Counted from the stretch's first letter, positions 36,660 through 59,416 are shown. The stretch is DNA of 59,416 bases from Candidatus Geocrenenecus huangii (GCA_023254095.1 JALNLM010000005.1:56383-115798); one strand, 5' to 3'. The notes: generated from the letters alone by a model not told the origin. Numbers and translations are program-made.

Positions 36660-36705
36660 GTAGTAAAGCCTAGTAAGGTAAATGAGCCCTTCTACATATG
36701 CCGTT

Positions 36706-38206: not shown

Positions 38207-38307
38207 CGACTAATAGCACATTAAGAATCTGAAACACTGTACTTTGAAATCCTAGATGATCCATATCCTGTATCCTTATATTTTGTTGCATGGTTGTTTA
38301 ATCAGGT

Positions 38308-38832: not shown

Positions 38833-38848
38833 TCTACAACCCATGTAT

Positions 38849-39430: not shown

Positions 39431-39431
39431 G

Positions 39432-42388: not shown

Positions 42389-44730
42389 GCACCCATACAC
42401 CTCAGATTTCTAACTATCTGCCTCGAGAGAATCTCTGCCAGTTCATGTGGATCGGCTACTCCACCTGCGTTTACGTTTACGCTTACGCTTATGTTTCTAG
42501 TTACCGTAGTAGGGCCATAGTTTCTAAACCATTCAGCAACATGTCTAGGCAGAATCATCTCTCCACGATGTAGATAGTATGCTCCCTCTGAGGTGAACCA
42601 TGCTCCAGACTGCGCCTTCGGCAAATACCTCCACAGCCTCTCCACTCCCTTCCTCGTCTCCTCTCCACCTGGATACAAAGTCTGTCCAGCACTCTCACTT
42701 TTCTTTCCTCCACCTTCAACCGTAATGATATGATGGTAATGGTATGTGTGGACGGTCAAGCCGTCCAGAACTTTCAACACATCTATGAAGTTCCTCGCAG
42801 TTTCTATGTTGCCCTGTATCGCGTCTCTAGTAGCATTCAAGGCTTGAATCAGAATGTTATGTAGTGAGCCAGCAACGTTTTGAGCATCGACCCCCATTTG
42901 CCTCAGAATGCTTATGAACTCCTCATGTGTTACTATCCCATCTTCAAGCGATGATGTCAACGCTGTCAGACCGTTAAGCAACATGTTCGAGGCGTCTGTG
43001 GCCCCCATAATGCTTAACTGTAAAGCTTGTTGGACAAGAGAGCCGGCTTGAGTGGCGTAGTTCAGTACTTTTTGAGCTGCCGCTAATCTCTCCTTACTAG
43101 CCTTAGCCTCCTCTGATAATTGAACGTCTTCACCAAGTGCCTCCATGATAGATATTGTAACGTCGTAAAGGTTTTCTCCTAAACTGATGCTCTTCCCTAG
43201 AATATCGAATGATGATGATAGAATCTTTAACTCACTCTGCAGACTCTTAATCTGCTCCTCAACCATTTTTATCGAGTTTGCTGTCTGCTGAGAAGATATT
43301 GTGGCTGCTGAGGCCATGGCCTGAAAGCCTTCAGGAACGGAGACACCCATCTCCACAGCTCTATCTATTAGTTCTTGAATCGTCTCGTTGTAGACTCCTA
43401 TGCTTTCAGCAATCTTGAGACCCTCGGCCACAGTTATCTCGCCCATGTCAACCCATGCCTTAATGTATTGTGCCGCTTTTTCCTCGGAGACTCTGCCCAT
43501 CACTCTAACCTCAAACTCCAAATATCCTAGATAGCGTTCAAGATCCGATTTCGTGATCGCCCCCATGATGCTTCTCCAAGCAGACATCACAGCGTCTACA
43601 GCCTTCAGGAATGAGGGTGCAACCATCGTCAAGATCGCTGAGGCCCCTTCACCTATGCTTCTCATCAACCTATCATTCTCTGCCTTCAATCTCGCCATCT
43701 TCCCCTCTGTAGTCTCAAGATAACGCATGTAGGTCTCCCACGCGGAGCCGCTCCTAGAAACCTCTTCAGCCAATTCCGCTATACTTTCATTCATCTGCGT
43801 AAACGTGAACAAGGCCTTCAAGGCTCTAATGTCGACACCTTTAAGCTTCTCCTGTAACTCGTCGAAGCTCATGCCGCCCATCTTCACAATATTTACTACA
43901 TCAAGCATGACCTTGGTCGTGGACCTGAGACTCCCATCCAAGTCATGTATTGGTACACCAAGTTTTCCAGCTATCTCATAGAGTTCTAGGAGGAAACGGT
44001 TTAGATGTGTTCCAGCTTCCTGCGCTGACCCGAACCTACGTTCCAGAACGATAAGCCATGAAGTCGTTTCTTCCAAACTCATACCCATGGCTCTGGCCGT
44101 TGCACCCACGTTAGCCAATCCCTGAGCGAAATCATTCGCAGAACCTATACCGAGACGTGAAGCATTAACCAACGCGTCGACAACCCTCTTTGCTTCACTT
44201 CCAGCTACGCCGAATTGGGCCATGACTTGGACGAGGTTTGCTGAAGCGGTAGCAAAATCAACGTTCTCGATCTTGGCGAGCATGATAGCGTCTTTCAATG
44301 CGAGTGCAGCTTCACGACCGCTCAAGCCGGCTTTAACGAGGTTTCCAAGAGCGGTTACAGCCTCTTTTCCAGAGACTGCGAGTTCTCGTGCTGCAGCAGA
44401 GGCCACAACCCTGAGTCCAGCAGCCAATCCCTCAATGCTTTGACCTGCTTCTCTGGATAATGAGGCAAGCCTCAGCGATTCAGCCTCAAATACACTAAAT
44501 GCATTCACGCTTTCTCTCACCCAACTACTTACTTGAGAAAATATGTTGAAGCCTATGAATCCTGAGATTACTCCTAGGCTGATTTTACCAACTTCTTTAA
44601 TAGAGCTGCCCAACCTGTTAGATTCGTCCCTTAACTGGTTAAGAGAATCAACCGCTTTTCTTACAGCGTTAGATATGTTTTCTTGTGCTTTTAGCAGGAT
44701 GGATACCGTGTATGTTCCAATCTCAGCCAT
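42385..44730 (-). CDS. Tail tape measure protein
   Basis: 781-aa Ala/Gly-rich helical protein with TMP-type repeats (LANVGATARAMGMSLEET, AGTHL) and C-terminal LHRGEMILP. Confidence 0.93.
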   Translation of the reverse strand: MAEIGTYTVSILLKAQENISNAVRKAVDSLNQLRDESNRLGSSIKEVGKISLGVISGFIGFNIFSQVSSWVRESVNAFSVFEAESLRLASLSREAGQSIEGLAAGLRVVASAAARELAVSGKEAVTALGNLVKAGLSGREAALALKDAIMLAKIENVDFATASANLVQVMAQFGVAGSEAKRVVDALVNASRLGIGSANDFAQGLANVGATARAMGMSLEETTSWLIVLERRFGSAQEAGTHLNRFLLELYEIAGKLGVPIHDLDGSLRSTTKVMLDVVNIVKMGGMSFDELQEKLKGVDIRALKALFTFTQMNESIAELAEEVSRSGSAWETYMRYLETTEGKMARLKAENDRLMRSIGEGASAILTMVAPSFLKAVDAVMSAWRSIMGAITKSDLERYLGYLEFEVRVMGRVSEEKAAQYIKAWVDMGEITVAEGLKIAESIGVYNETIQELIDRAVEMGVSVPEGFQAMASAATISSQQTANSIKMVEEQIKSLQSELKILSSSFDILGKSISLGENLYDVTISIMEALGEDVQLSEEAKASKERLAAAQKVLNYATQAGSLVQQALQLSIMGATDASNMLLNGLTALTSSLEDGIVTHEEFISILRQMGVDAQNVAGSLHNILIQALNATRDAIQGNIETARNFIDVLKVLDGLTVHTYHYHHIITVEGGGKKSESAGQTLYPGGEETRKGVERLWRYLPKAQSGAWFTSEGAYYLHRGEMILPRHVAEWFRNYGPTTVTRNISVSVNVNAGGVADPHELAEILSRQIVRNLRCMGA

Positions 44731-44732
44731 CT

Positions 44733-44957
44733 CTATGTAGTCCCCCGACCTTTTTTAAATTTCTTAGAAGAGGCTTTCTTAGCATACTCGAGGTCATGTA
44801 TAATCAACGTAGCGAGATAGTATGTTATCTCTCCATCTGTAAGATTCATTATATCTTGATGCGTCCAGTGATAGTGTTCAGCGATAATGTGTTCTATGAA
44901 GTATCCTGCATCAAGTTTTCCCGCAATCTCCGCTGCCTTAATAATTCTTGAAAAGGG
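44733..44957 (-). CDS. -1 frameshift extension of tail assembly chaperone (lambda gpGT-like)
   Basis: Overlapping -1 frame ORF entered at slippery C CCT TTT (44951-44957); ends just before tape measure. Confidence 0.7.
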   Translation of the reverse strand, partial: PFSRIIKAAEIAGKLDAGYFIEHIIAEHYHWTHQDIMNLTDGEITYYLATLIIHDLEYAKKASSKKFKKGRGTT

Positions 44958-45325
44958 GCCATGAATACGAAGTCGTTGACCTCCGAGAACAAGGTATACC
45001 ATTCGCTGTACTCTAGCTTATTCATTTCATCTTCACTTAATCCTTTAACGCAGAGATGGAGAAGCCTCTTCTCAAATTCGTACTGGACCTTCTCTTTCTC
45101 TTCTATAAGCTTCTTCTTTTTCTCGAAGTCTTCCTCACTCATTATCTGGCGTTCGAGAATAGAAAGTAAAGTAGAGAGCTGGCTTATACCCGTACAGTAC
45201 ATCTCTCCACGGGTTGGTCGACGGATAGTATACCTTCTTCCCCCAACCTCCACTTCTTTGATTTTCTGGAAAAGCTTCTCCCGGCTAGCCTCACCTGCGA
45301 ATTCTCTAAGCTTCTCAACGCTCAT
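44894..45325 (-). CDS. Tail assembly chaperone
   Basis: Upstream of tape measure; EVGGRRYTIRRPT motif; overlapping frameshift ORF. Confidence 0.75.
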   Translation of the reverse strand: MSVEKLREFAGEASREKLFQKIKEVEVGGRRYTIRRPTRGEMYCTGISQLSTLLSILERQIMSEEDFEKKKKLIEEKEKVQYEFEKRLLHLCVKGLSEDEMNKLEYSEWYTLFSEVNDFVFMAPFQELLRQRRLRENLMQDTS

Positions 45326-45345
45326 ATTCTATCAACCCTCAGACA

Positions 45346-45711
45346 TCATGATCTTAAGAGATTGAAAGAGGACTTTACCCTAGCTATAGCTTTCTCTGCA
45401 GCAGGCTTCATGAATGGTCTAGGAGGCATCCTCCTAGTTCCGAACTCGACGAAAGGAGCATAATATGGTTTACCCTTCTCCCTAGATGGGTATCCAGCAA
45501 CTATTCTAAACTCGAAGTCTCCACGTCTCTCTAGATTTATGGAGCTGCGAAGTCTACCAGTCCTTACATGCACCGTCTCCCTGGCAGTATTGTATGCTTC
45601 TATAGATGCTTCTAGGAGCGTGTCTGATGTTTTCCTGCGTATCTTCTCATAGATCTTCATCAAGGAATCTTTCAGGTTCTCCTCTTCTTTCAAGATTACC
45701 TCAAACATCAT
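45346..45711 (-). CDS. HK97 gp10-like tail completion protein
   Basis: HVRTGRLRSSI...YAPFVEFGTRRMPPRPFMKPA. Confidence 0.92.
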   Translation of the reverse strand: MMFEVILKEEENLKDSLMKIYEKIRRKTSDTLLEASIEAYNTARETVHVRTGRLRSSINLERRGDFEFRIVAGYPSREKGKPYYAPFVEFGTRRMPPRPFMKPAAEKAIARVKSSFNLLRS

Positions 45712-45717
45712 CTATCC

Positions 45718-46614
45718 CTAATATTCTTCGATGTCGTCTTTTACCTCGACGTTTATCTTCTTAGGGTAGAGTCTAATAGTCTGCATAAGTACCTCCGCCT
45801 CGAAGGGTACTTCTGCCTCGGCCTCTATTAAGCAATCCTGGAGATTGAAGTGTATGTAGTCATCACTGGAGCGGGTCAACCTCAACTCGATATCAACGAT
45901 GCTTCTTGATAGAAACTTATCCAGCAATATAGCATCTTCGAAGATTAGGTCTAATTCTCCTTCGCATTCAGCTTTCGTCAACTTGAAACCTGATACGTGG
46001 TCCCCGACCCTAGGCATCTCTTCTAGATTGTTGCTTATGGATAGGCTCGCACTAACTATAGATGCATATTCTACCCCCTCAATATACAATTTCATATCGT
46101 TGAATCTATAAGGCTTCTTGTTCGGTAAGCTTATGGCTGGGTCGGTGTATGGGGAGACTATAGATACTGACTTAGCTCTACACTCTAGAGAGACTGTAAC
46201 GAGTCCATCAGATTCTATAGAGATGTCGGCTGAGTCGACTAAAACCCCAGTAGCTCTTTCAGCGATCGACGTCTCACCGATCCTGGCAGCCTCCACCGTG
46301 ATAGACTTTAAGCTGTTCCCAAACTCAATAAGATGAGTGTATGGGGAGCTTGAACCACTACTAACTACTTTTCCAAAAACGTATTTTAAGAATTTTCCAG
46401 AGATGGGTAGGAACTCTATAGTTGGAGAGAAGTTCAACCCTATGGGTATTCTATCATAGTTTTCTCTTTCGCCCACCCTGACATCCTGATATACTAGCTC
46501 TCCTCCAGAATTCCATCTCCTAGCTATCCCTAGAACATCTAGCATAGATGCTGGCTCACCATACTCTTCTTCCTCACCGTAATACAGCTTCCTGATCATG
46601 TATCCCGACAGCAT
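45718..46614 (-). CDS. Tail tube (major tail) protein
   Basis: YGEEEEYGEP N-terminus, LKYVFG, YTH, SLSISNNLE; position in the module. Confidence 0.78.
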   Translation of the reverse strand: MLSGYMIRKLYYGEEEEYGEPASMLDVLGIARRWNSGGELVYQDVRVGERENYDRIPIGLNFSPTIEFLPISGKFLKYVFGKVVSSGSSSPYTHLIEFGNSLKSITVEAARIGETSIAERATGVLVDSADISIESDGLVTVSLECRAKSVSIVSPYTDPAISLPNKKPYRFNDMKLYIEGVEYASIVSASLSISNNLEEMPRVGDHVSGFKLTKAECEGELDLIFEDAILLDKFLSRSIVDIELRLTRSSDDYIHFNLQDCLIEAEAEVPFEAEVLMQTIRLYPKKINVEVKDDIEEY

Positions 46615-46626
46615 GGTTTAAACATT

Positions 46627-47838
46627 CTATGAAATACTTTTAATCTCTGAGAAGAGTTCATTCTTCATATCGATAGCTGACTTAACGTCTAGCAGACCTG
46701 CTCCAAATAAGTTTCTAGGATCTAGAATCAGGGGAAGTTGTTCAGAGAATACCATAGATAGCTTCCTAACATTCTTGGGTTTCTTCTCTTTGAAGAGGAG
46801 TATTCTATCTGCTTGATAGTCTAACGGGAGAGGTCTAGAAGAAAGATGTAGAATACGTCTAGTAGCTATTGCAGAGTTCAAGTCTCTGTTTATTATAGAT
46901 GCGGTAGCTGTAACCCATGGAGCTGCAAAACTTGTGCCCTTCAAAGATACATCGTTCAAGATGAATAAACCTGGAGCAACTAAGTCTGGCTTAAATCTTC
47001 CATCGAGTGTGGGGCCACGGCTTGAGTATTTCCACAACTTGCCTTTAGTATCGGTTGCGCCTACAGTTATAGCATGTCTGGCCGCTCCGGGTGAACCTAC
47101 AGACATCATTCTAGGTCCACCATTTCCCGCCGCCACCACCACTGCTATCTTCTTCTCTTGTGAAAGATAGTTTACGTATAAGCTTAGGGGATCACATCCA
47201 TCACTCCATGTCTCGCTCTGGATACTTAGATTGACAGCGTGAACTCTCAATTCTATACAGTTTTTCAAAGCCGTTATTACTACGTAGTCTGGGATAGCCC
47301 CTTCTTCTTCGAAAACCTGTATAACGTGGATGTTTGCTTCGGGGATAAGCTTATGGATTATCGAGTGTATGTATCTTCCATGGCCTTCACCATCTATTAT
47401 CGATGCCTCGTATATTGATATCTTAGCTTTGCTCGGAGTATCTTCTGACGCTCCAGAATCTATTATTGCTACCTCGCATCCTTTTCCTCTCTCTTCTTCT
47501 AAATGTATATCTATGAATCGTGTTAATCTCAGGGCTTCTTCGAATCCGCCGTCTTTCTGATTTTTGTAACTGCTTAAAAACCTGTATCTTAAGCCTCTGC
47601 AAACATGGGCTCCCTCCCCCCTCCTAACTCTCTCTATAGCTGATTCTGCATCTTCTACTTTCTCGATTTCTCCAGACAGCCTGCAGACCCAGTAATGTCT
47701 TGAAGTATCCCCTCTATCTTTAGATACCAGCATCCTCCACTTGCTTGGGCCGAAGGGACAGACGTTTTCACAGCATTGTAGAGGAAGCCTTTTCCCACAT
47801 ACGTATCTTGAGGAAAACTTAATTCTGTAGATGCACAT
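46627..47838 (-). CDS. Subtilisin-like S8 serine protease with Cys-rich N-terminus
   Basis: Catalytic triad AIIDSG / GHGRYI / GTSFAAP; AAGNGG; SSRGP...KPDLVAPG. Confidence 0.93.
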   Translation of the reverse strand: MCIYRIKFSSRYVCGKRLPLQCCENVCPFGPSKWRMLVSKDRGDTSRHYWVCRLSGEIEKVEDAESAIERVRRGEGAHVCRGLRYRFLSSYKNQKDGGFEEALRLTRFIDIHLEEERGKGCEVAIIDSGASEDTPSKAKISIYEASIIDGEGHGRYIHSIIHKLIPEANIHVIQVFEEEGAIPDYVVITALKNCIELRVHAVNLSIQSETWSDGCDPLSLYVNYLSQEKKIAVVVAAGNGGPRMMSVGSPGAARHAITVGATDTKGKLWKYSSRGPTLDGRFKPDLVAPGLFILNDVSLKGTSFAAPWVTATASIINRDLNSAIATRRILHLSSRPLPLDYQADRILLFKEKKPKNVRKLSMVFSEQLPLILDPRNLFGAGLLDVKSAIDMKNELFSEIKSIS

Positions 47839-48219
47839 CTATCTTGAAACCTCCTTTAACACGAGTATCATGCTTTTCCGATGAATTCCCCCCTCCTCAA
47901 TATCTATGATCCTGTAGAAACGTATTGGGTACCATCCATATCTTAGATAGTTTTCAGAAGATCTGCTGAGAAGACTTCCCAGTATCTTCTCAACTATCTC
48001 ATCACGTTGTTTAGCGGATATTGCCCATACGTCAATCTGGAATTCATAGACTCTATACTGAAGATTTGTTAATGCTATCGGTTCTGATGAACCATTATTC
48101 TGGATTATCGTGATTAGCGGGATTAAGTCGTTGTTAGATATCCATGCAGTCTTAACGGGTATGCCTACGATCTGCTTAATCTCTTCTGCGAGTTTCTCTA
48201 GAATTCCAGGTATAGGCAT
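47839..48219 (-). CDS. Tail terminator/completion protein
   Basis: PLITI...FQIDVWA motif; position after the adaptor. Confidence 0.7.
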   Translation of the reverse strand: MPIPGILEKLAEEIKQIVGIPVKTAWISNNDLIPLITIIQNNGSSEPIALTNLQYRVYEFQIDVWAISAKQRDEIVEKILGSLLSRSSENYLRYGWYPIRFYRIIDIEEGGIHRKSMILVLKEVSR

Positions 48220-48220
48220 G

Positions 48221-49063
48221 CTACAGCACCTTAACCTGTCTAGGAAGATTCTTCTTGATTCGTTCAACTTCTTTCCTGAGAAACTCTAATCTGCTGAATA
48301 TTTCTCCAGGCTTCTTGAACACCATAGATATTCTTCCCTGGTATTCTGGCTCAGTAGTGTACAGCATGCTTATCCTAGAGAGGACATGATAGGATGATAA
48401 TAGTAAGGCAGCTTGCTTAACTATTCCAGGTACCTCAGAGTATCCTGAAAGATATCTCACCCTTACATAGAATGCAGTAGGGACATACCAGGGTGGAAGG
48501 ACCACCCCTGCACAATATTTTTTCAACCTGATTACTCCAAGCTCAGGGTAACATTCATACATGCTTGGTTTGAGCTCTTCCAATACTTCACCATTATGCG
48601 ATTCAACGATTATTGACTCGATCCTGATGACTGGAGTATTGAGGAGAGATATAGTGTTCCCGTGAGACAGGTATACTCGTTCTTCATGTAGTGATTCTTT
48701 AAAGCTTCTTCCACATTCTGAGTCTATTTCTCCTTCTGCTGCATCTATGGCTACTTTAAGTTCATGGTCACTTACTGGATGCCATGAATAAGATGCTGTA
48801 ACATCTAGGCCTGGAGGTGGAGACTCAAGCAAACTTATACATCCCTCATCACAATCTACGCTAGATACTTGAACGGGCAGTCCACCGACTTTAACTTCTA
48901 CATCATCTATTACTACTCCATCGTAATCTGGGTCTACTATCGGTTTAAACAATGTATGAAATTCTTTCGTCACCCCGTCGCCTACTCCGATCTTCTCGTC
49001 TGTGACTCTTATCGGAGTAAATTGTAGAAACCTTCTAAGATCCCCTACACTACAGTAACTCAT
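48221..49063 (-). CDS. Head-tail adaptor (gp6/gp15-like) with inserted beta domain
   Basis: MSYCSVGDL start; AIDAAEGEIDSECGRSF; VRYLSGYSEVPGIVKQA. Confidence 0.8.
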   Translation of the reverse strand: MSYCSVGDLRRFLQFTPIRVTDEKIGVGDGVTKEFHTLFKPIVDPDYDGVVIDDVEVKVGGLPVQVSSVDCDEGCISLLESPPPGLDVTASYSWHPVSDHELKVAIDAAEGEIDSECGRSFKESLHEERVYLSHGNTISLLNTPVIRIESIIVESHNGEVLEELKPSMYECYPELGVIRLKKYCAGVVLPPWYVPTAFYVRVRYLSGYSEVPGIVKQAALLLSSYHVLSRISMLYTTEPEYQGRISMVFKKPGEIFSRLEFLRKEVERIKKNLPRQVKVL

Positions 49064-49087
49064 CAGGAAATGATGTTGCTTGGATAT

Positions 49088-50551
49088 CTAATTTTTCTGA
49101 GAATTCAGATTCTGTGGGTCGGGGTACTCTTTGTATACTGGGTTCTTCCAGACATAGTATACTGTAGGGATAGGAGTTTTCTTCAAGGCTTCAGCCATTG
49201 CCTCAATATCTCCGTAAACTACTTTCTTTAGTAGCTTGGCATCTCTCTTAAACTTCGGATTATACGTCTTCAACATGATCTTCTTCAACCTCTTCAAGAC
49301 AGGCTTATCTAATGTCTTCAATACCTCCAAGTTGTGTTTTTTCGATTGTATCATATCCAGTCTGAATCCCATCTCCTCCAGTCTCCTATAGATGTACTCG
49401 ATCATTTCCGAAGGCCTAGTATCTATTCTCATCATCCCGGCTTTCTCGAGGAATGGGTGGTACCTGGCCATTGCTGCAAGGCACTCAATATACGGGACAC
49501 CTAGCAAAGGCATAGTCTCTCTAATTAGCTTGACCGAAAGCCCTATACCTCTATACTTAGGGTGAACTATTATTCTCGCAAGCCTCCTAAAACATCTATT
49601 AACATAGTCTAGATAACTTTTTCTAGATTTTCTACTTAATTCTCTTAGATGTGTAAAGGCCTCATATCTCGCCTTCAAGTATGCATGCGGGTATGTGTAT
49701 AGAATTACGCCGACTACTTTCCCTCCTAGCTTTGCACGGTAGATCTTCGACCCCCATCCTCTAAACCCACCTTTATAATGCCAAAATTCTAAGCTTTTGA
49801 GATCTCTCATATCACCTTGCTCAATAACAATGTTTTTCATTAAACTACATTCTCTAGGTTCAGGCTTGAAGTATTCTATCTCGACTTCTGGGCCTAAACC
49901 TTTTCTTATCAAGATGTTTGGGTTCGCATCATAGATCAAATCTTCATGGGTAGTGGCCACAACTAGAGTTATCCCCATCTTACGGCATATCTTCTGGATT
50001 AGGTAAGCTACAACCTTCGCCGTCTCTCTATCAAGGGTTGCGCAGAATTCATCAAACACTAAGGTCTTGGCATTCTTATCTAAGGCTTTAGCAAGCTTAT
50101 ACCTATATTTTTGCCCATCACTTAGCTCTTCATATCTTCTCAAGTAAATGTAGGCGTCGCTGAGACCAGTATAGTTAAGTATCTCTAGAGCCTGCTGAAA
50201 TGATTCACCAACACCATGTATCACCAACTCGTTTCTTCTTATGGCGATGTTTCTCTCGGTTACGATCGGCATAAATTCTTTATGTTTACTCATTTCCTCA
50301 GCAAGCATTAATAGGAGAGTTGTTTTCCCTCCCCCGCTCTCCCCCGTAACATATACGATGTCGCCGGGGTTGATGTCTACCTCAAATTCTCTGAACAACG
50401 TGAATGCTTTCTCCTCATCTATCCCTAAACCGAATGCTCTAGCAACTTCCACCGTCCTTCTAGTTACAGGAGCAATAACTCTAAACTCTTTATCTACTCG
50501 GAAAAGTTTCTGGAATCTATAGCTGGGCCTATACTTGATCTTGAGCTTCAC
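49088..50551 (-). CDS. ABC-type ATPase fused to GNAT (Mom-like) acetyltransferase
   Basis: GESGGGKT, LSDGQ, LVFDEF, ATTH; then WHY and RLARIIVHPKYRGIGLS acetyl-CoA motif; no TM domain. Confidence 0.85.
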   Translation of the reverse strand: MKLKIKYRPSYRFQKLFRVDKEFRVIAPVTRRTVEVARAFGLGIDEEKAFTLFREFEVDINPGDIVYVTGESGGGKTTLLLMLAEEMSKHKEFMPIVTERNIAIRRNELVIHGVGESFQQALEILNYTGLSDAYIYLRRYEELSDGQKYRYKLAKALDKNAKTLVFDEFCATLDRETAKVVAYLIQKICRKMGITLVVATTHEDLIYDANPNILIRKGLGPEVEIEYFKPEPRECSLMKNIVIEQGDMRDLKSLEFWHYKGGFRGWGSKIYRAKLGGKVVGVILYTYPHAYLKARYEAFTHLRELSRKSRKSYLDYVNRCFRRLARIIVHPKYRGIGLSVKLIRETMPLLGVPYIECLAAMARYHPFLEKAGMMRIDTRPSEMIEYIYRRLEEMGFRLDMIQSKKHNLEVLKTLDKPVLKRLKKIMLKTYNPKFKRDAKLLKKVVYGDIEAMAEALKKTPIPTVYYVWKNPVYKEYPDPQNLNSQKN

Positions 50552-50569
50552 GCCAAAGATATGTGTAAT

Positions 50570-50576
50570 AAAAAAA
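50570..50576 (-). terminator. Oligo-T terminator candidate after capsid gene
   Basis: T7 tract ~30 nt downstream of the MCP stop on the minus strand. Confidence 0.4.
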
Positions 50577-50606
50577 TATTGGTGTGAGAATCGGATAGTC
50601 GAGGTT

Positions 50607-51560
50607 CTACTGGCTTAGGGTATTCTTGATTATGTAGACTGCGTCTGGTCTAAGTATTCTCCACGCAAACCTCTCGGAGGCCACGATTATTGTTAATCCT
50701 TTCTTCACATCTCTATCTCTCTCGATAAGAATCCTTCTTCTATCTCCACCAACAGCTGCTAGGCTTGGATTACATATTATCACATCGCTAACTAGGGTCT
50801 GGTCAGCTGCTGAGTAATTTCTCCGAGACAGATAGCTTGTCTCAATAATCTTCACACCGTATATCGTTGGTAATTCTCCAGACGAGATAACTTGAGATGA
50901 GAGAGTATCTAAGCCTTTATCTGAGAGGTCTTTTCTAAGATAGGAGGCTGCAAACGGATTCAGGAAACAGACTAAATTATCAGCATATCCTTGTTCTTCA
51001 AAGTATGATAAAGCATTACTGATATCATTTAATGTTAGAGCGTTTTTCTCTAAGTCTACTATCTTAGCTTCATCTGAAGCTGTTAGCCTCGATAAACCCG
51101 TGAATAGATTATAGGCGTCAGACCCTGACCCGTCGCCTGTTAAGGCATTTCTTTCTTCACATTCTGCGAATTTCTTACCTAGATGAAGTACACTTCTAGC
51201 GATTACATCTATCTTGGCTTCCTCTGACGCTACGTCCGTAATCGATGTCCATGCACGTATCTCTTTAGCTATGAGCTCCACAGGTGTACCGAACAATATC
51301 TTGCTCTCCTCGATCTCCGCTCCTTCTGAAGATGGAGAGTACACCTCCACCGTTCCTGACTCGACATACCATTTTACTATATCTGAATCCATCGTTATCC
51401 AGGGGAATAGCTGTCTAACGTATGTCTTCTTCCATACATATTCTATGATATCTCTTGCAACTACCTCCGGGATTTCCGGAAAACCTGTATCTCCGCTTGT
51501 CAAAGCTTTATAGAATTCTAGGTATGCTTCAAAGCTTTTACCGATATCTAACTTATTCAT
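50607..51560 (-). CDS. Major capsid protein (HK97-like fold)
   Basis: After the protease; IPEVVARDII, SEGAEIEES, EERNALTGDG, LPTIYGVKI, ERFAWRILRPDA. Confidence 0.9.
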   Translation of the reverse strand: MNKLDIGKSFEAYLEFYKALTSGDTGFPEIPEVVARDIIEYVWKKTYVRQLFPWITMDSDIVKWYVESGTVEVYSPSSEGAEIEESKILFGTPVELIAKEIRAWTSITDVASEEAKIDVIARSVLHLGKKFAECEERNALTGDGSGSDAYNLFTGLSRLTASDEAKIVDLEKNALTLNDISNALSYFEEQGYADNLVCFLNPFAASYLRKDLSDKGLDTLSSQVISSGELPTIYGVKIIETSYLSRRNYSAADQTLVSDVIICNPSLAAVGGDRRRILIERDRDVKKGLTIIVASERFAWRILRPDAVYIIKNTLSQ

Positions 51561-51586
51561 GTATGCTATACCCTACAGAAGATTAT

Positions 51587-52771
51587 TTAGTCTGAGAATT
51601 CATCGTAAATCTCCCTGTAGAGTTTAACCAGCATAGATGACTTATCCAATCTATGGTCTCTACTATTATTCTTAGAGACCAGTTCATCTTTTACAATGAG
51701 CCCTTTCTCAGTATTCTCAGAGTCGGTCTGAATACTCTTATACATTACATGTTTCTCCAACTTCTCCAATCTATTGTGTATGTCTTCAATTACTCTTACA
51801 TCAACTGTTCCGAGATAGCATGCTCCTAGAGATTTCTCAGACCTCTTCCATGGGACGATATAGTTTTCAGTTAGAAAACCTTCTTCAATCATACGGTTAA
51901 CAAGTTTCTCTAATGCTTCCTTAACTTCAGCTGGAGGGCTAACCCCCCTCGCTCCACTGGCATACTTGACCGCCGTCATTATGCCACTCGTAACTAACAC
52001 GGGTTTCCCATCAACGATGTCGCCTACCGGCCATGAGTAATCACTTCTATTCTTTCCGTCGCCTTCGACTACCAGAAATAGCTTAGAAGCTTTCTCTCTA
52101 TCAATCGTCCCATCTTCTCTCTCAGCCCAATCGAGTATTCTTTTAGCTGCTTCTCTACCATCCCATTCCCCCCTCTCAACAATTTTTAAGTCGTAGTCTA
52201 CTTTCTCAAGCCGTAAAGGTTCATTCATGTATTCTTCAGGATCTGTACTAGTTATTTCTCTGAGAAAACCATTTGAGATACTGTAGGATTTACCAAGTAT
52301 CCTTATTATTTTAGCTGAAGGATTTACTCCTCTAGGTGTAAGGCTTACCTCACGTATCTCTGCTTCCTCGATAATGTTTATATCTCCAACACGCTTGAGC
52401 TTCTTCACAACCCCTCCTATGCTTAATGCTTTCAATACTCCCTTCTTTACATAATCCCAGATTTCGCTAAATGCACGGTATATCCCCGCTTTAATCTTTA
52501 ATGCTTTATCCTCTATCCATGCATCAATTATTCTGCCGACCGGCTTACCGCCTATACCGCTCTCTCTACCATGTAGTAGCAGTATAGGTTTACCCTTAAG
52601 ATTCCGAGCATTCTCTATCAACACCTCTGGCATTATCTTATCACCTTCAAGATCGACGTCCGCCGTTGACGCGATACCTTCAAAGAATCCGATAAATTCT
52701 TCTTCTGCAATATCTTCTTTGACCATCACTGGTTCTAGGAACAATATCGTTTGGAATGCTTTTTCAGACAT
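51587..52771 (-). CDS. HK97-type prohead protease with C-terminal extension
   Basis: FEGIAST..VDLEGD, LLLH, PVG, ALSIGG, EVSLTPRGVNPSA. Confidence 0.9.
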   Translation of the reverse strand: MSEKAFQTILFLEPVMVKEDIAEEEFIGFFEGIASTADVDLEGDKIMPEVLIENARNLKGKPILLLHGRESGIGGKPVGRIIDAWIEDKALKIKAGIYRAFSEIWDYVKKGVLKALSIGGVVKKLKRVGDINIIEEAEIREVSLTPRGVNPSAKIIRILGKSYSISNGFLREITSTDPEEYMNEPLRLEKVDYDLKIVERGEWDGREAAKRILDWAEREDGTIDREKASKLFLVVEGDGKNRSDYSWPVGDIVDGKPVLVTSGIMTAVKYASGARGVSPPAEVKEALEKLVNRMIEEGFLTENYIVPWKRSEKSLGACYLGTVDVRVIEDIHNRLEKLEKHVMYKSIQTDSENTEKGLIVKDELVSKNNSRDHRLDKSSMLVKLYREIYDEFSD

Positions 52772-53447: not shown

Positions 53448-54461
53448 TTGGAGAAGAAGTTTAAGGTCTTGTTCCTCTTCGTATTGTTACTAGGTTTCTT
53501 AACAACGGGGATAGCTCAACAAGTTATAACGACTACGACTACTACCGTCTTAACTATTCCCGGAACAACGTATGTTACGACATTTGAGGGTGGAGAAAGT
53601 ATAGTGACCATGATTGTTCCAAGATACACCATGATAATTGTAGAAAAATATCCGGATAAAACATGCACTATAGTAGTGAAGCCCCTAAAACCTGAAGATG
53701 GGGTGATAGAGATCCCCGGTACAACTATAACTGTCCCGGGCGCAACTATGCAAACAGTAATAACCGAGCCTACGATAAAATATTCTACAATCTATGAAGA
53801 AGATGGAGTCACAACCACGACAGGATATACAGTTATAGAGTTCGCTACTACGATGTATGGCCAGACATTCTCTATGCCTTTCCCTATCTACGCAGAAATA
53901 GTGTCAAGCTGTCAGACAATACAAGTATTAGAAGAAGTAACAATTATTATGGGAAGTGTTCCTGCTACACTATATTATGCATATCCTGAGATGACGTACT
54001 CGTTTGAGGGGACGACAATCACTCTTGAAGGTGTGGAAGAAATACCGTTATCAACGCTAACAACCATAACTATCACGCCTGGAACAACGTATACTGAGAC
54101 AACATTATTCCCTGGAACAACGATATCCACTGTTGTAACTTTACCGGCCGGAGCCCGCACAATAACTGAGCCTGAGAAAACAATAACATCCACGATAACC
54201 TATGTAACAACGCTTCCTGAATCAACCCCGAAGACAGTTACTACGACACCCACGACTACCACTAAGTCAGAGACCAGCCCAACAAGCATAGCCACAACTA
54301 CGTCGGCAGCCACCTCGATTAAGACTGAGACAACCAAGCCTAGTGTAGAGGCTGCTGGACTGCCTCTCGAAATGATTGTTGGGGTAGTGGTTGTAGTAGC
54401 AATTGTAATAATTGGGGTAGCTGTATTACTCTTTAGGAGAAGCGTGAGCAGAATCAGATAG
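53448..54461 (+). CDS. Thr-rich membrane-anchored cell-surface protein
   Basis: Signal peptide, repeated PGTT motifs, Thr/Ser linker, C-terminal TM and RR tail. Confidence 0.85.
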   Translation: MEKKFKVLFLFVLLLGFLTTGIAQQVITTTTTTVLTIPGTTYVTTFEGGESIVTMIVPRYTMIIVEKYPDKTCTIVVKPLKPEDGVIEIPGTTITVPGATMQTVITEPTIKYSTIYEEDGVTTTTGYTVIEFATTMYGQTFSMPFPIYAEIVSSCQTIQVLEEVTIIMGSVPATLYYAYPEMTYSFEGTTITLEGVEEIPLSTLTTITITPGTTYTETTLFPGTTISTVVTLPAGARTITEPEKTITSTITYVTTLPESTPKTVTTTPTTTTKSETSPTSIATTTSAATSIKTETTKPSVEAAGLPLEMIVGVVVVVAIVIIGVAVLLFRRSVSRIR

Positions 54462-54744
54462 AAGAACAAGTTCAACATGAAAGAAAAACCCATACCTACA
54501 GTTACTTGTGGATACAATAAGCTGGTCTAGTTCACAATATCCGACTCATATGATGTGCTAACCTGATAAAGCATAGTATATCTGGGGCATTAAACTATAC
54601 CAGTGAAAACCTCAACAACAGTTCTCCAGGAACGAGTGTAAGGATCATCTGGGGTCCTTCCTAACCCTTAACAATTCTAAAGATTCACTACCTTTTCCTC
54701 CTAGGAGATGGTGACCGTTATGGATGCAGGCATGTAGATCTATG

Positions 54745-54829
54745 TGCGGGGGGTGGGATTTGAACCCACGAACCCCTATGGGACAGGAGCCTCAGTCCTG
54801 CGCCTTTGACCAGGCTTGGCTACCCCCGC
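54745..54829 (-). tRNA. tRNA-Leu(GAG), integration target
   Basis: Acceptor GCGGGGG/CCCCCGC, anticodon arm CAGGA-CTGAGGC-TCCTG, long variable arm, GGTTCAAATCC. Confidence 0.96.
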
Positions 54830-55006
54830 ATCCATTATCAGAAATTCCTCCATCTCTGGGAAGGCCTGTATAAGAAGCTTGATGTCCGCAACAGCCTGTA
54901 GAAGGCGTTTCTTTGCCCGGCATTTTGCAAGCCTCAAGTTTTCAGGCTTAATGGTTTCTCCAGCCACATAACCCGTTAAAACCTTCTTTTCCCACCTGCT
55001 CAGCAT
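54776..55006 (-). pseudogene. Integrase N-terminal fragment int(N)
   Basis: Reads into the att repeat in the same frame (FLIMDAGVAKPGQRRRTEAP) as int(C). Confidence 0.85.
54786..54846. repeat. att direct repeat, copy 1 (5' half of tRNA-Leu plus 17 nt upstream)
   Basis: Identical to 59290-59350 (GGAGCCTCAG...ATCAGAAATT). Confidence 0.97.
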
Positions 55007-55280
55007 ATCTTATTAATGTGGCGGCCAGGGTAAAAACGTTTCAGGCCGTTGAAGCTAGGCGTTTCCATCCATAGAAACATGAAAAAATAGAAAAAAGCCT
55101 GGATTTTAAGGTTTTACACCGTGATATTTAAACTTTTCTGCATAAATCATTTATGTAGAAAGACACGCCTTTATCTATGTGCCAAAATATTATTAATAAT
55201 AGATGAAAGGCATGAAAATTATTATAATAACATCTCACACCTTTAATCATATACAAATGTATATTAGAATCTAGAGGCAA

Positions 55281-55640
55281 AAAATTAACATAAACATGTT
55301 AATTTTCACATGTTTAAGATAAAAAATTAACACGTTCATGTTAAGTTTTGTACCGTTTGTTTCTAAGCCCAAAACAAAGGTTTCAAGCCAAAATAAGCTC
55401 AATCTGAGCTTTTCAGGCAAAAAGAAGCTTTTTCCAAGCTTAGAAACAACCGGGACAAAGCTACGGAATCCGTAACAAAACATTATAATTCTTTAGCCAG
55501 TATTTAAACCCCATTAAAGAATTATAATCTAAAATGCACAATTTTGTACATTATAATACCCGTCTAAAAGAGAAAACTTTATATACTATTGCATCATAGT
55601 ATTTAAACTTTTCTTTTTTACACTTCTATATAAAGTTTTC
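55281..55640. repeat. Cluster of inverted repeats in an AT-rich non-coding region (candidate origin/operators)
   Basis: AAAATTAACA-N6-TGTTAATTTT at 55281 and a near-copy at 55323; IR 55347-55368/55438-55459; perfect 14-bp IRs at 55482/55515 and 55572/55627. Confidence 0.75.
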
Positions 55641-55852
55641 ATAGCTTAAAAACACACCTTCCTCAAAATCTGATAAAATACTAGGATGTGGCCACAATTT
55701 GAGTTATTTTTTAGCTTTTTAGTCCTAGGGGTAAAGGGGAAAAGTGCTCCTTAAACAATAAAAATTAAATATAAAAAAATTTAACTAGGATGGCTTCACC
55801 TATATTTAAAAATAACGTAAGGTTTATAAATAACCTAATATATATTTTATGT

Positions 55853-56035
55853 ATGAAATTGAGTTTAAAGCACAGAAAAAATAATAAAGGAGAAAAGGTA
55901 GAGTTTAGAAAAGCATTTAACTTATACCGCAGTATAGTTATTACTCTCCCCAAAGACTTCTGCAAAAGTGGAGACTATATTATCTTGAAGAAGATTGGGG
56001 AAAAAATAGTTTTAAAAAGGGTTGATTATTCATGA
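55853..56035 (+). CDS. AbrB/SpoVT-like small DNA-binding protein
   Basis: RKAFNLYRSIVITLPKDF..GDYIILKKIGEKIVLKR. Confidence 0.65.
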   Translation: MKLSLKHRKNNKGEKVEFRKAFNLYRSIVITLPKDFCKSGDYIILKKIGEKIVLKRVDYS

Positions 56036-56196
56036 CTGAATATGTTTCTCAAACATTCAGAGTAAGAAAGAGGCCTGCAGTATTTCTGCCAAAAGGTTTC
56101 TCTACTGGAGAATTAGTCAGGGTTAAGGTTCTGCAAAACGGTAAAGTAATCATTGAACCAATTAGCCTGTCCAAGGCAGATTTATATGAATATTGA
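56032..56196 (+). CDS. Second AbrB-like small protein (54 aa, not in ORF track)
   Basis: MTEYVSQTFRVRKRPAVFLPKGFSTGELVRVKVLQNGKVIIEPISLSKADLYEY; ATGA overlap with the previous gene. Confidence 0.62.
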   Translation: MTEYVSQTFRVRKRPAVFLPKGFSTGELVRVKVLQNGKVIIEPISLSKADLYEY

Positions 56197-56229
56197 TTTG
56201 GGGGTGAGGAAACGTGAACTCTATGAGAG

Positions 56230-58068
56230 GTGATTTTCACGGCCACGTTTCCTCAAGAATATAGTGGTAGAAGGGGGGATAAAAGTCTTTCCCCATTATT
56301 AGAGACAGCGCTCACACCTTTCTACCTAAATTTTATTGTCTGCCCATTCAAACTAAAGCATGATGGTGGAAAAGTAAAGAAGACGCCTTTAATGAGGCCT
56401 GGAGACCTTGATAGATGGAGAAAAGAGGGGCAGAGTATAGAAGAGAAGAAAAATCTAGAATGGAGAAATGCTGACGGTCTAGGAATTTTCCTGGAAAAGA
56501 TAACTTTGAATAATGAGACCTTCTACCCAATTGCTATAGACGTTGATGCTGGAGAAGATTTCTGGAGACCATATCTAAAACATCTGCCCATAACACATCT
56601 TGAGAAGACGCCAAGAGGCGGCCTACATGCATTTTATCTCTCAAAGCATCCGCCAGAGAGATCCATGTCCATTGATCTTGGCGGCGGGAAAAGGGTTGAG
56701 TTTCTTTACGGAAAATGGGTAATAATCTATCCATCAAGCGGGTATCAAAAACTAAATGATTCATCATGGCGGGTTGTAGAAGATGCCTACAGCATATTCC
56801 TCAGGTTTACTGCTGAAGTAGGTGGAAGCATTGAGGCTGATGGGCCACGGCTAGAAGAAGATGACTCCCTTAAACATTTGAAGAAGAAGTTTCTTGACAT
56901 CATCAATGATAGGATAGCGTACAGGGGGAGCGGCTACCTCCTTATCCATTGCCCACTACATGCTCCAGATAAGAATCCAAGCATGGTCTTCTACAATAAT
57001 ACAAACCTGATCATAGATTTCCATGATGGAAGAAAGTATCTGTTGAAGGATTTCCTGGAAAAATATTTTGAAGTAGTTGGTGGGCGGGAAGAAGATGGAA
57101 AAAGTGAATGCTTATCCGTTAAAAGTTTAAGGGAATACGTTGAAGGGGCGGAAGAGATAGAATATATTGTTGAGAACCTTCTTCCTAAAGGATCCTTAAT
57201 CTTATTGTATGGCCCTCCAGGTTCTGGAAAATCTTTCCTAACCCTTGATCTCCTAGCAAAAGTATCTGAAAATAAAAAGGTGTTTGATTACTTTAATGCT
57301 TCTCAAGCGGCCACACTCTTAATTGACGCTGAGAATTCACCTAGTTTATTGAGGGATAGATTGAGGTTTCTGAAGGGTTCAGGTGAAAATATCTTATTTA
57401 TGTCCACTCCCTTCAGTATTACGTCAAAGAAAAATCTAGACTTTCTAGAAAATGTTATAATGGAGAAAGGTGTGAAATTAATTGTTCTGGATAACTTTTC
57501 ATCTCTGAATCCAAAAATTGATGAGAGAGACTCAATCAGAGTATATCACCTACTCAATAATTTGAGGAAGATTGCTTTAAAAACACATTCATGCATTATA
57601 CTCATCCACCACGTGAGGAAAAACCAGCCCTTCAGCATTTCACCATTAGAAGAAATTAGGGGATCAACAGTTCTCTCAGCCGTCCCAGACATAGTTATAA
57701 AGATGGAGAAGCTGAGGGATTTTTTCCAGTTCACGGTTGTTAAGAATAGGATAAGTAACAATTTTCAGAGCTTACTACTGGAGCTTGAGGAAGGAGGGTT
57801 CAGGTTTCTGCAGAATGTTGAAGGCGGCGTTGATGAAAATATGTCCGCATGCATCCGTTACGTTGAGGAATTTGCAAAAACGGCCACAGGCAACGTCTTC
57901 TCACCTAAAGAGATTGCTGAAAGCTCACATTATTCACGTAACTTAATCTATAAGGCTATATCACTTCTCCAAGCAACTGGGAAGATAAGAAAGATTAAGC
58001 GGGGCTTCTACAAGTATGTTCTACAAACAACTCTATCTAATCCAGGTGATGAAGAAGAATATGAATAA
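56230..58068 (+). CDS. Replication protein: primase-polymerase + Zn motif + RecA-type (AAA_25) helicase + wHTH
   Basis: AIDVD and TPRGGLH (AEP prim-pol), CPLHAPDKNPS, GPPGSGKS, IVLDN, LIHHVRK, IRGS. Confidence 0.9.
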   Translation: MIFTATFPQEYSGRRGDKSLSPLLETALTPFYLNFIVCPFKLKHDGGKVKKTPLMRPGDLDRWRKEGQSIEEKKNLEWRNADGLGIFLEKITLNNETFYPIAIDVDAGEDFWRPYLKHLPITHLEKTPRGGLHAFYLSKHPPERSMSIDLGGGKRVEFLYGKWVIIYPSSGYQKLNDSSWRVVEDAYSIFLRFTAEVGGSIEADGPRLEEDDSLKHLKKKFLDIINDRIAYRGSGYLLIHCPLHAPDKNPSMVFYNNTNLIIDFHDGRKYLLKDFLEKYFEVVGGREEDGKSECLSVKSLREYVEGAEEIEYIVENLLPKGSLILLYGPPGSGKSFLTLDLLAKVSENKKVFDYFNASQAATLLIDAENSPSLLRDRLRFLKGSGENILFMSTPFSITSKKNLDFLENVIMEKGVKLIVLDNFSSLNPKIDERDSIRVYHLLNNLRKIALKTHSCIILIHHVRKNQPFSISPLEEIRGSTVLSAVPDIVIKMEKLRDFFQFTVVKNRISNNFQSLLLELEEGGFRFLQNVEGGVDENMSACIRYVEEFAKTATGNVFSPKEIAESSHYSRNLIYKAISLLQATGKIRKIKRGFYKYVLQTTLSNPGDEEEYE

Positions 58069-58432
58069 TTTGAAGAATTTCATCATGTCTGAAAAAACAA
58101 AAATTGCCTTCAAGTGTAGAAGATGTGGAAAAAAGTCAAGTTTTGAGATTAATGGGGTGTTAAAATGTAGTTACTGTAATGAGGTTTACACCTACAACTG
58201 CTTGTTCTGTGGCCATGTCTTCAGGGTGGGGGAAAGAGTTGAATACTGTGTAGTGTGTGGATGGTTCAAGTGTCCAAGGTGTGGAAAATGTGGATGCATT
58301 ATTAAATTTATTTTAGACTTCTATAAGAAGAATAGGAAAAAAATAATTAGGGAGCTTCAGCAGAAGCGTCTTGCAAGGTATAAGGGGACGGCTGTTGAAA
58401 AACTCCTCACACTCTTTAGACTGATTGAGTAG
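58061..58432 (+). CDS. Multi-Cys zinc-finger protein
   Basis: Five CxxC pairs plus CGC; overlaps the rep stop. Confidence 0.72.
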   Translation: MNNLKNFIMSEKTKIAFKCRRCGKKSSFEINGVLKCSYCNEVYTYNCLFCGHVFRVGERVEYCVVCGWFKCPRCGKCGCIIKFILDFYKKNRKKIIRELQQKRLARYKGTAVEKLLTLFRLIE

Positions 58433-59339
58433 TGTCTGCATCAATGTCTTCAATAAGCTTAAACAGCTCCTTTACCCCCCTACTAACTCTCTCTTTTAAG
58501 TCTAAAATATAGTTTAAAATGAGATAGTTTTTCATGAAGATGCTCTTGCCTATTCTGCCCTGCAGGAAGTTTATTTCAGGCTCCGTCAAGTATTTTACCA
58601 TAAAAGTTGCCCACAATTTTCTAACATGCTTTAATCTACACTTGTTTTTTCTCAATCTCCATCTGATAGCCTTAATGGTTACTGGGGTTGAAGAGGCCAC
58701 GGCCTGGATAATGTTTTCAGGGCAGAAACTAACATAGACGTTTTTGCTTCTTCTGCAGAATATTTCTTGAAATCTGAAGTGTTCAAGCCACCCATCTCTA
58801 TAATAACTATTGAGTTTGTTTTCATTTTTTAATCTTATTATGAGGTTGAAGCTTTCAACTGCCTCAAGAGGCCTCATGCCTGAGGCTAGAAGCAAGTCAA
58901 TATATGGAGAAAGACTGCCTAGGCTTTTTCTAGCATTTTTTATCCAGAATAAAATGTCTCCAAATGCATCTTCATCAAGGTTAAGGTTCAAACTAAAATT
59001 ATGGGTAAACTTTATTCCGTATCTCTCCCTCATTCTTCTAAATTCTTCATAAGTGCCAGTAAATCTGCATAAACATGCAAGAGCTGATAATATATGCCTC
59101 TGTTTCCCGCATCCATAATGTAGAATTTCTGAGAGATCTCCAGATGAAAGGAGGCTGTGAAATTTTCTAGCATAGTTTAATATGCTGTTTGCGTGGACCC
59201 TGCTGTATTTCACCTCAACAAACTTCCTGAATCTATCCCAATCAATGTTTTCAGGTAAAAGGTTTACCTTTCTACTTTGATGATGGCTTGGAGCCTCAGT
59301 CCTGCGCCTTTGACCAGGCTTGGCTACCCCCGCATCCAT
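58416..59339 (-). CDS. Tyrosine integrase C-terminal fragment int(C), SSV/pTN3-type
   Basis: SGMRPLEA (Arg I), RSK, HVRK (Arg II), LQGR, KNYL (Tyr); N-terminus encoded by the att repeat. Confidence 0.92.
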   Translation of the reverse strand: MDAGVAKPGQRRRTEAPSHHQSRKVNLLPENIDWDRFRKFVEVKYSRVHANSILNYARKFHSLLSSGDLSEILHYGCGKQRHILSALACLCRFTGTYEEFRRMRERYGIKFTHNFSLNLNLDEDAFGDILFWIKNARKSLGSLSPYIDLLLASGMRPLEAVESFNLIIRLKNENKLNSYYRDGWLEHFRFQEIFCRRSKNVYVSFCPENIIQAVASSTPVTIKAIRWRLRKNKCRLKHVRKLWATFMVKYLTEPEINFLQGRIGKSIFMKNYLILNYILDLKERVSRGVKELFKLIEDIDADTTQSV

Positions 59340-59350
59340 TATCAGAAATT
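59290..59350. repeat. att direct repeat, copy 2 (truncated tRNA-Leu 5' half)
   Basis: Identical to 54786-54846. Confidence 0.97.
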
Positions 59351-59416
59351 TTTCTTCTTCGTATTTACTCTTTTATTCTCTACATAAATTTTATGGTTTA
59401 ATCATGCTTTTTGCGG

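Follow-up and report, generated by a model that had tools for sequence, protein, structure and literature searches.

An integrated plasmid without TCG

The 59,416-nucleotide stretch of Candidatus Geocrenenecus huangii DNA analyzed here (GCA_023254095.1, JALNLM010000005.1:56383-115798; referred to as the window) lies at one end of contig C2 in a genome of 32 contigs and 1,609,249 bp, the sequence of which comes from a hot springs metagenome. Close to the contig end, the window contains an intact 4504-bp integrative plasmid in a tRNA-Leu gene, and this plasmid, like three diverged relatives, completely lacks the trinucleotide TCG on both strands. We see about an even chance that this plasmid clade is kept TCG-free by continuing DNA-level selection in the mobile phase, the most likely agent being a restriction-like nuclease.

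Between the outer ends of its terminal repeats (54786-59350; 4565 bp, G+C 0.375), the element has 68 CG dinucleotides but 0 TCG, 0 CGA, and 0 TCGA, which makes exact the count of a first-pass annotation of the same DNA that had put the CG dinucleotides at 65 to 70 and found none in either context. The remaining 54785 bp of the window contain 1657 CG, 583 TCG, and 564 CGA. The closest motifs beyond the element are a CGA at 54769 and a TCG at 59359, both at the positions previously given, and the unstranded TCG/CGA-free tract between them (54770-59358) is a 4590-bp gap holding all 68 CG. The edges of the depletion are therefore the edges of the element, with its attachment (att) repeats at 54786-54846 and 59290-59350. 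The comparison of observed with expected k-mer counts that had been proposed in the annotation gave a first-order Markov expectation of 44.4 TCG plus CGA for the element (Poisson P of approximately 5e-20), and the second-ranked trinucleotide depletion within it reaches an observed/expected ratio of 0.73. Across the genome, the 4590-bp gap is the longest TCG/CGA-free run, the runner-up measuring 788 bp; when all 32 trinucleotide classes were compared, it was about four times as long as the longest gap of any other class (CGC/GCG, 1192 bp). The share of CG in TCG/CGA context was 0.569 ± 0.053 over 1497 genome segments of 4 kb, among which the segment of the element was the sole outlier (0.03), and the probability of finding 0 of 68 CG in these contexts at the genome-wide rate is approximately 1.5e-25.

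No such purge is seen in the host, where TCG/CGA has an observed/expected ratio of 0.96 and where the chromosome with the plasmid carries 33,326 sites, or approximately one per 48 bp. The motif is also frequent in the adjacent head-tail gene cluster (35400-52771; 608 CG, 238 TCG, and 177 CGA), as had been noted for both. Outside the TCG/CGA contexts, the density of CG is equal in the element (68 per 4565 bp) and in the rest of the window (736 per 54785 bp). All eight NTCG and TCGN contexts are absent, in line with the earlier claim that the avoidance is broader than that of a single four-base cutter, whereas the remaining CG contexts, among them ACGT and GCGC, still occur, CCGG at a reduced level. 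The avoided unit is the 3-mer TCG and not a typical site of 4 to 8 bp, which would usually be palindromic.

Independence from codon usage and coding strand

The coding DNA of the element (3822 nt with overlaps) and its non-coding DNA (827 nt, 13 CG) are both without TCG and CGA. Synonymous shuffles within genes, in which codon usage and proteins were kept, yielded 42.9 ± 6.0 TCG/CGA sites against 0 observed, and the lowest count across 2000 such shuffles was 22 sites. Codon bias alone, which the first-pass annotation had considered as an explanation, is ruled out by these shuffles and by the motif-free non-coding DNA. Neither TCG nor CGA serves as a codon in the element (0 of 84 serine codons and 0 of 88 arginine codons), and this lack makes up a small part of the depletion. 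Specifically, in the 612-residue replication protein Rep, none of the 83 codons before Asp or Glu ends in C, with C-ending codons numbering 114 of 612 overall; G does not follow any of the 43 TC-ending codons; no CGN codon comes after T; and no NCG codon comes before A. Because synonymous choice can avoid every TCG and CGA, the purge is free of cost at the protein level. Both trinucleotides are absent whatever the strand of a gene, and the constraint consequently lies on DNA, not on RNA.

Relatives with the same depletion

Close homologs of Rep are few: only four were found among 5.8 billion proteins, with 41 to 44% identity, and one of them bears the NCBI label "Nitrososphaerota archaeon." A scan of metagenome contigs with Rep produced three loci from separate records (L001, L002, and L003), the Rep proteins of which are 42 to 47% identical to that of the window. 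The DNA of the members is at most 73% identical, this being the value for L002 and L003, and L001 matches the homolog P0003 at 98%. Scans of genome contigs and of viral contigs gave no Rep relatives. The related plasmids, in which the annotation had suggested looking for the signature, turned out to be equally free of TCG and CGA. The first 2541 bp of L001, comprising Rep and an integrase gene, contain 71 CG and 0 TCG/CGA; this motif-free run ends within the target tRNA-Ala gene, and in the DNA past that point the motif is back, with a TCG/CGA context for 41 of 67 CG. L002 (1079 bp, 18 CG) and L003 (1171 bp, 17 CG) likewise have 0 TCG/CGA. Taken together, the window element and the three loci amount to 9356 bp with 173 CG and 0 TCG/CGA (P of approximately 7e-64 at the host rate), and the CG density in permitted contexts is the same in the family as in the host.

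Since synonymous sites are saturated at such divergence, the absence of TCG is actively maintained and not merely inherited. The G+C content of the elements tracks that of their hosts (0.375 versus 0.407, 0.388 versus approximately 0.37, and 0.462 versus 0.47 to 0.48). A recent arrival, as proposed earlier, cannot be inferred from the signature, because the depletion is kept at these levels of Rep and DNA identity and the G+C content follows the hosts; the depletion is an old, maintained trait of the family and not the un-ameliorated signature of a donor.

When genomes were searched with Rep or its profile (61 from relatives, 76 from the class, and 401 from the phylum), a single further close copy was revealed, a decayed one in genome G029. 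Partial relatives turned up in three genomes (G025, G077, and G192), and G056 gave a weak match. G029 belongs to another genus of the same family, and its copy is dead, with many stop codons in Rep. The att pair, located at tRNA-Arg(TCT), is degenerate (41 nt, 83% identity), and zinc-ribbon and integrase remnants are retained. Between the att sites, TCG/CGA contexts account for 11 of 176 CG, compared with 193 of 326 and 29 of 62 in the flanks, and the low-TCG region is bounded by the degenerate repeats. This copy was once TCG-free and is now regaining sites in the chromosome. It follows that TCG is not purged by residence in the chromosome and that the constraint is tied to the plasmid's active life; the dead copy serves as both an internal clock and a control. 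Ten of its 11 regained sites lie in the 1.85-kb Rep remnant (L016 8813-10663, on G029:C8), and the integrase remnant together with 1.5 kb on the other side has almost no TCG/CGA. Either decay has proceeded unevenly or some of the copy has been replaced.

A zinc-ribbon open reading frame (ORF) is present in all four members for which the region is available, namely, the window and, as detected by tblastn, L002, L003, and the G029 copy. It is located 5' of Rep in L002 (13-243), L003 (398-700), and L016 (10939-11100) and 3' of Rep in the window; gene order is rearranged within the clade.

Architecture of the plasmid

The element is delimited by a perfect 61-bp direct repeat, the unstranded left copy of which (attL, 54786-54846) is 100% identical to the likewise unstranded right copy (attR, 59290-59350) at a spacing of 4504 bp; the contig ends 66 bp beyond attR (59351-59416). 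ARAGORN identified the integration target as tRNA-Leu(GAG) (54744-54829, minus strand), with its 5' 44 nt within attL, and the repeat consists of the 5' half of the tRNA gene plus 17 nt upstream. The tRNA-Leu(GAG) gene overlapping attL is intact, i.e., the target gene was regenerated; the relatives reside at tRNA-Ala and tRNA-Arg genes. The tRNA-Leu gene is now preceded by plasmid DNA, its former upstream region lying beyond attR, and the plasmid may have to supply its promoter.

The integrase gene is present as two ORFs at the ends of the element. The N-terminal fragment Int(N) (54776-55006, minus strand) ends in the att-encoded peptide MDAGVAKPGQRRRTEAP and on its own had no match in Pfam or PHROG. 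The same peptide starts Int(C), the catalytic part of an SSV-type tyrosine integrase (58416-59339, minus strand), which begins inside attR and matches PF16795 (28.7 bits; cut-off, 27) and the integrase family phrog_5127 (1.4e-11). As the two end ORFs share the repeat-encoded peptide and the larger one matches an archaeal phage integrase, we take this to be an SSV-type integrase that was split on integration. The direct repeats, the tRNA-Leu target, and the split integrase support the first-pass annotation in calling this an integrated element, and given the perfect repeats and open ORFs, it is intact in appearance. SSV-type (suicidal) integrases are known from elements of the pTN3, pT26-2, and pSSVi kinds. 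The present element resembles these in that its integrase gene contains attP and is split into Int(N) and Int(C) on integration into a tRNA gene, with direct repeats flanking the integrated DNA; it differs from the known SSV-type plasmids and viruses in its type of Rep, its hosts, and its very small size of 4.5 kb. No PLSDB plasmid gave a megablast match to it.

Int(N) is followed by an A+T-rich, unstranded intergenic region (55007-55789) with short imperfect repeats (D4 and D5) and short ORFs only; the G+C content of 55001-56000 is 0.296. It is a putative origin or regulatory region. Next come an 81-codon ORF (55790-56035, plus strand), which had no family match in Pfam or PHROG, and a 54-codon ORF (56032-56196, plus strand) with a MazE/AbrB-like match to PF04014 (16.4 bits, below the cut-off of 24.7), possibly encoding a small DNA-binding regulator. 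The zinc-ribbon ORF, of up to 138 codons (58016-58432, plus strand), contains several CxxC pairs and is kept in the depleted family; searches with it returned no family match, no informative relatives, and no nuclease or methylase signature.

Rep itself (56230-58068, plus strand) comprises a putative Prim-Pol-like domain at the N terminus, a stretch rich in Cys and His, and a helicase domain of the RepA/DnaB (AAA_25) type. The helicase domain is well supported, with matches to AAA_25 (1.6e-26), RSF1010 RepA (1g8y, 5e-8), and T7 gp4 (approximately 5e-6). Residues 1 to 300 had no Pfam match. Their assignment as Prim-Pol-like is a lead from the ESM Atlas, in which the N terminus matched PF09250-bearing clusters with a feature score of 0.96 and TM values of 0.63 to 0.66; D104, D106, and H133 are invariant in the Rep alignment. 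In hhalign, the Rep profile aligned with a PF09250-bearing Prim-Pol protein from residue 234 only, i.e., over the Cys/His stretch and the helicase, and the AlphaFold2 model of Rep, built from a five-sequence alignment, was poor (pLDDT 51.6, pTM 0.37). The presumed combination of a Prim-Pol-like domain with a P-loop helicase in one polypeptide would be shared with replication proteins from phages and small plasmids of archaea and bacteria (pRN1 ORF904 type; RSF1010 RepA helicase). The pRN1 helicase belongs to superfamily 3, whereas the helicase of Rep matches RepA/DnaB/RecA-like proteins only (AAA_25), and its presumed Prim-Pol domain is too divergent for Pfam. The element is a further SSV-type integrative plasmid with a putative Prim-Pol/helicase Rep, one of a small clade of plasmids in hot-spring archaea.

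Proposed selection in the mobile phase and its possible agent

In the reading that we favor, purifying selection on the DNA itself would keep the clade without 5'-TCG-3' on both strands. This selection would operate on the episomal plasmid or on the plasmid entering new cells and would lapse after a copy has died in the chromosome. Its agent would be a restriction-like nuclease, which may or may not be paired with a methylase, that occurs within the host range and to which the bare TCG marks target DNA; the plasmid would meet this nuclease on entry or during episomal replication; we infer that a nuclease is involved and that it acts on transfer. A 4.5-kb replicon would escape by having no target, and large elements would need other protection. 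Besides TCG, the 4-bp palindromes GATC, CCGG, and GTAC are low in the family (0.31, 0.34, and 0.35 relative to the host rate, respectively), which is the usual mark of restriction avoidance and fits a restriction-like nuclease.

According to Shaw et al. (2023, PMC10359461), small plasmids adapt to restriction-modification (R-M) systems via sequence composition and large ones via protective genes; the carriage of such genes by large elements would explain why the neighboring provirus is unaffected. The restriction-site avoidance of small plasmids and phages described there resembles the present case in that a short motif is purged synonymously on both strands and large elements are spared, and GATC, GTAC, and CCGG are low here too. 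In the known cases, however, the targets are of 4 to 8 bp and mostly palindromic, belong to identified R-M systems, and are usually avoided only partially, whereas the element lacks a nonpalindromic 3-mer, of which not one copy is left in a family whose members have diverged widely. To avoid a 3-mer completely is new relative to motif avoidance of the restriction type and points to an undescribed TCG-reading activity. Nucleases specific for three nucleotides do exist: Nt.CviPII of a chlorella virus (CCD) and endonuclease IV of phage T4 (TCA) are viral enzymes aimed at host DNA, and DNA in which the motif is missing or masked is spared by them. They have in common with the present case that a 3-nt motif is enough to direct cutting or nicking, as the depletion implies, and we know of none among them that reads TCG or comes from archaea.

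It is quite possible, if somewhat short of an even chance, that an undescribed DNA-targeting system of these hot-spring archaea, or of something traveling with them, recognizes just TCG and that the plasmid clade, having lost every site, escapes its notice. Motif avoidance is one of the few routes that lead from sequence alone to an unseen defense system, and if this reading is true, the zero-TCG signature would be a sequence-only detector for both the TCG system and its evaders. A TCG-reading nuclease, if it exists, would have one of the shortest specificities known and would raise the question of how a host with a site every 48 bp or so protects itself. The plasmid, being small, self-replicating, and integrative, would in turn be a natural tool backbone for uncultured or hard-to-transform hot-spring archaea, one that already evades the barrier.

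Several observations weigh against the reading that we favor. Four DNA methylases of the host were examined (one of type II with 311 aa, one with 415 aa, an orphan enzyme of the C5 kind, and a IIG-like protein with 983 aa), none of which could be tied to TCG from its sequence. To our knowledge, no enzyme of bare TCG specificity has been described, and the TCG 3-mer is not used by any described archaeal restriction, modification, or CRISPR system; a literature search produced no report of a TCG-free replicon or of a TCG-specific nuclease. In the accessible part of the table of an archaeal R-M review (PMC11033074), TCG appears only inside longer motifs, and a survey of k-mers in archaeal mobile elements mentions it only within halophile 5-mers (PMC7962313). 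A host-wide barrier might also be expected to mark other mobile DNA at least partly, and none of the other mobile elements examined is even partly depleted. These comprise eight loci of the class with integrases 28 to 51% identical or fragmentary, an element in G025 with a helicase 33 to 36% identical, contigs of G077 and G192 (other families) with a Prim-Pol-like domain, and the adjacent head-tail provirus, the counts of which are given above. Tolerance of the motif was moreover not strictly zero, as the att site of the G029 copy had one TCG in its tRNA-derived part. Finally, the trait tracks one narrow clade, defined by the 612-aa Rep, the zinc-ribbon ORF, and a size of approximately 4.5 kb.

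This last point speaks for a cause intrinsic to the plasmid, a fairly unlikely alternative in which a plasmid product acts on or binds TCG DNA and the plasmid spares itself by lacking the motif. Possible candidates are the zinc-ribbon protein and the Prim-Pol domain of Rep, via ectopic priming, nicking, or attack on competing DNA. Primases recognize template trinucleotides, and that of pRN1, also of the Prim-Pol type, needs one; a primase needing TCG, however, would find no site on its own plasmid, and the closer Prim-Pol-domain relatives in G077 and G192 are embedded in TCG-rich DNA. The depletion follows the Rep clade and neither the host nor the integrase family, and the zinc-ribbon ORF, present in every member in which it could be sought, was not found by tblastn in the non-depleted loci L017, L123, and L124, which are short, making its absence there weak evidence. 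The protein has no informative relatives, and nothing in it marks it as a nuclease or methylase. A TCG nuclease encoded by the plasmid would call for protection of the 33,326 host sites, of which none is seen, and the alternative as a whole is short of a mechanism that would work.

Less probable again is a context-specific mutational process, i.e., a deaminase or the decay of methylated cytosine converting TCG in an episomal, possibly single-stranded state. A C5 cytosine methylase is encoded by the host, deamination is fast at the temperatures of the hot springs in which the hosts live, and the loss of constraint in the dead chromosomal copy would fit an episome-only process too. The expected product, TTG/CAA, is nevertheless under-represented in the element (observed/expected ratio of 0.78, versus 0.985 in the host), CG outside the TCG/CGA contexts is as dense as in the host, and TCG in the host is about as frequent as expected. 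A count of exactly zero in four highly divergent lineages, reached via the choice of codon pairs, resembles purifying selection. The first-pass annotation had proposed selection or mutation against a 3-bp motif; of the two, selection on the DNA stands, and mutation by deamination is disfavored by the shortage of TTG/CAA. A TCG-directed system, as suggested there, was not found in the host.

We regard as very unlikely the evasion of a CRISPR or guide-dependent nuclease, with TCG in the role of protospacer-adjacent motif (PAM), or of the transposon-associated equivalent (TAM), of the hosts' type I system, by which the plasmid would be neither sampled nor cut. The host has CRISPR arrays and Cas3, its CRISPR repeat presumably resembling those of Sulfolobales type I-A subfamilies. 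Type I systems read PAMs of 2 or 3 nt on either strand, which would produce a strand-symmetric depletion, and as in PAM escape the loss of the motif would give immunity to targeting; 0 of 155 spacers from this genome and its relatives match the element. With no protospacer found, however, no PAM can be derived, and Cas1 was not found in the assembly, which is 96% complete. In a study of PAMs (PMC4390879), the Sulfolobales type I-A subfamilies use CCN, TCN, and GTN without a third-base bias, and several motifs are tolerated in interference; for related repeat families, the PAM is a dinucleotide plus N, whereas the element keeps 190 TCA, 127 TCC, and 242 TCT on its two strands (559 in total). 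Chance, codon bias, or an assembly artifact, for which only the disuse of TCG and CGA codons could be cited, has next to no probability left and is refuted by the motif counts, with P of approximately 1e-25 for the element and 7e-64 for the family, shuffles that never fall below 22 sites, motif-free non-coding DNA, recovery of the tract in runs X4 and X6 of a second study, and relatives from separate metagenome records.

R-M and CRISPR loci of the host

The orphan-like C5 cytosine DNA methylase of the host (313 aa; C1:43966-44907, minus strand, corresponding to L037 3966-4907) aligns over its full length with M.HaeIII and M.HhaI, and its gene is surrounded by ribosomal-protein and Mrp/Nuo genes. 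A further N6_N4 match is located on C25, where it is cut by the contig end. An "N6_N4" match on C13 was rejected as an R-M gene, being a THUMP/UPF0020 RNA methylase. A 370-aa ORF overlapping the methylase of contig C5 was considered as an endonuclease or mobile R-M partner and was likewise rejected, because it belongs to the core genes: 65 of 76 class genomes have it, and its identity drops with distance. In a second-order Markov analysis, the host genome (G000) under-represents the 4-mers GTAC (0.62), GATC (0.68), CGCG (0.69), and GCGC (0.71) and the 6-mers GGGCCC (0.59) and CTCGAG (0.68), a shortage that is likely the mark of past or present R-M systems.

The Cas3 core helicase is encoded at C1:83897-84943 (238 bits, above the cut-off). 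CRISPR arrays are located at contig ends, namely, at C12:1-801 and as fragments at the ends of C20, C21, C28, and C32; no cas genes were found beside the C12 array. The repeat is 24 nt long and ends, on the complementary strand, in a handle of the ATTGAAAG type; in the congener G001, 292 repeat copies are present. For the 155 unique spacers, taken from G000 and from 17 array loci, no protospacer was found in the element, in G000, or in any other locus of the dataset, the viral contigs not having been scanned with single spacers; the sole spacer match, over 17 nt, was due to chance. When a 34-spacer array was searched as DNA in 76 genomes, arrays matched arrays and no protospacer was found.

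Population state of the element

In Logan contigs, the element forms a separate unitig of 4503 bp in four runs on hot springs that belong to three studies, and its tract was also recovered in runs X4 and X6 of the second study (P2). In the three runs with good coverage of the element, the depth of its unitig was lower than that of both flanks, with 76 versus 127 to 129 in X1, approximately 17 versus 43 in X4, and approximately 7.5 versus 26 in X6; contig depth is not copy number, and these values hint that only part of the host population carries the element. Contig joints skipping approximately 4505 to 4530 bp at the tRNA gene were also seen. They are ambiguous, with sides of 21 to 35 nt, 90% likeness, and a conserved tRNA sequence, and on these grounds they were discounted as evidence for an empty site or a circle. 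Among the 36 population variants listed for the runs of the second study, 0 create a TCG or CGA, compared with 2.24 expected (P = 0.096), which weakly supports continuing selection.

Neighboring genes

The provirus-like cluster at 35400-52771 lies on the minus strand and encodes, all on this strand, a portal protein (35400-36659), a large terminase (36706-38007), a tape measure protein (42385-44730), a major head protein (50607-51560), and a head protease (51587-52771), along with a tail protein. Between the provirus and the tRNA gene, an ORF at 53448-54461 encodes a threonine-rich protein of 337 aa with a signal-like N terminus and a C-terminal membrane anchor, which judging from these features is probably a surface protein.

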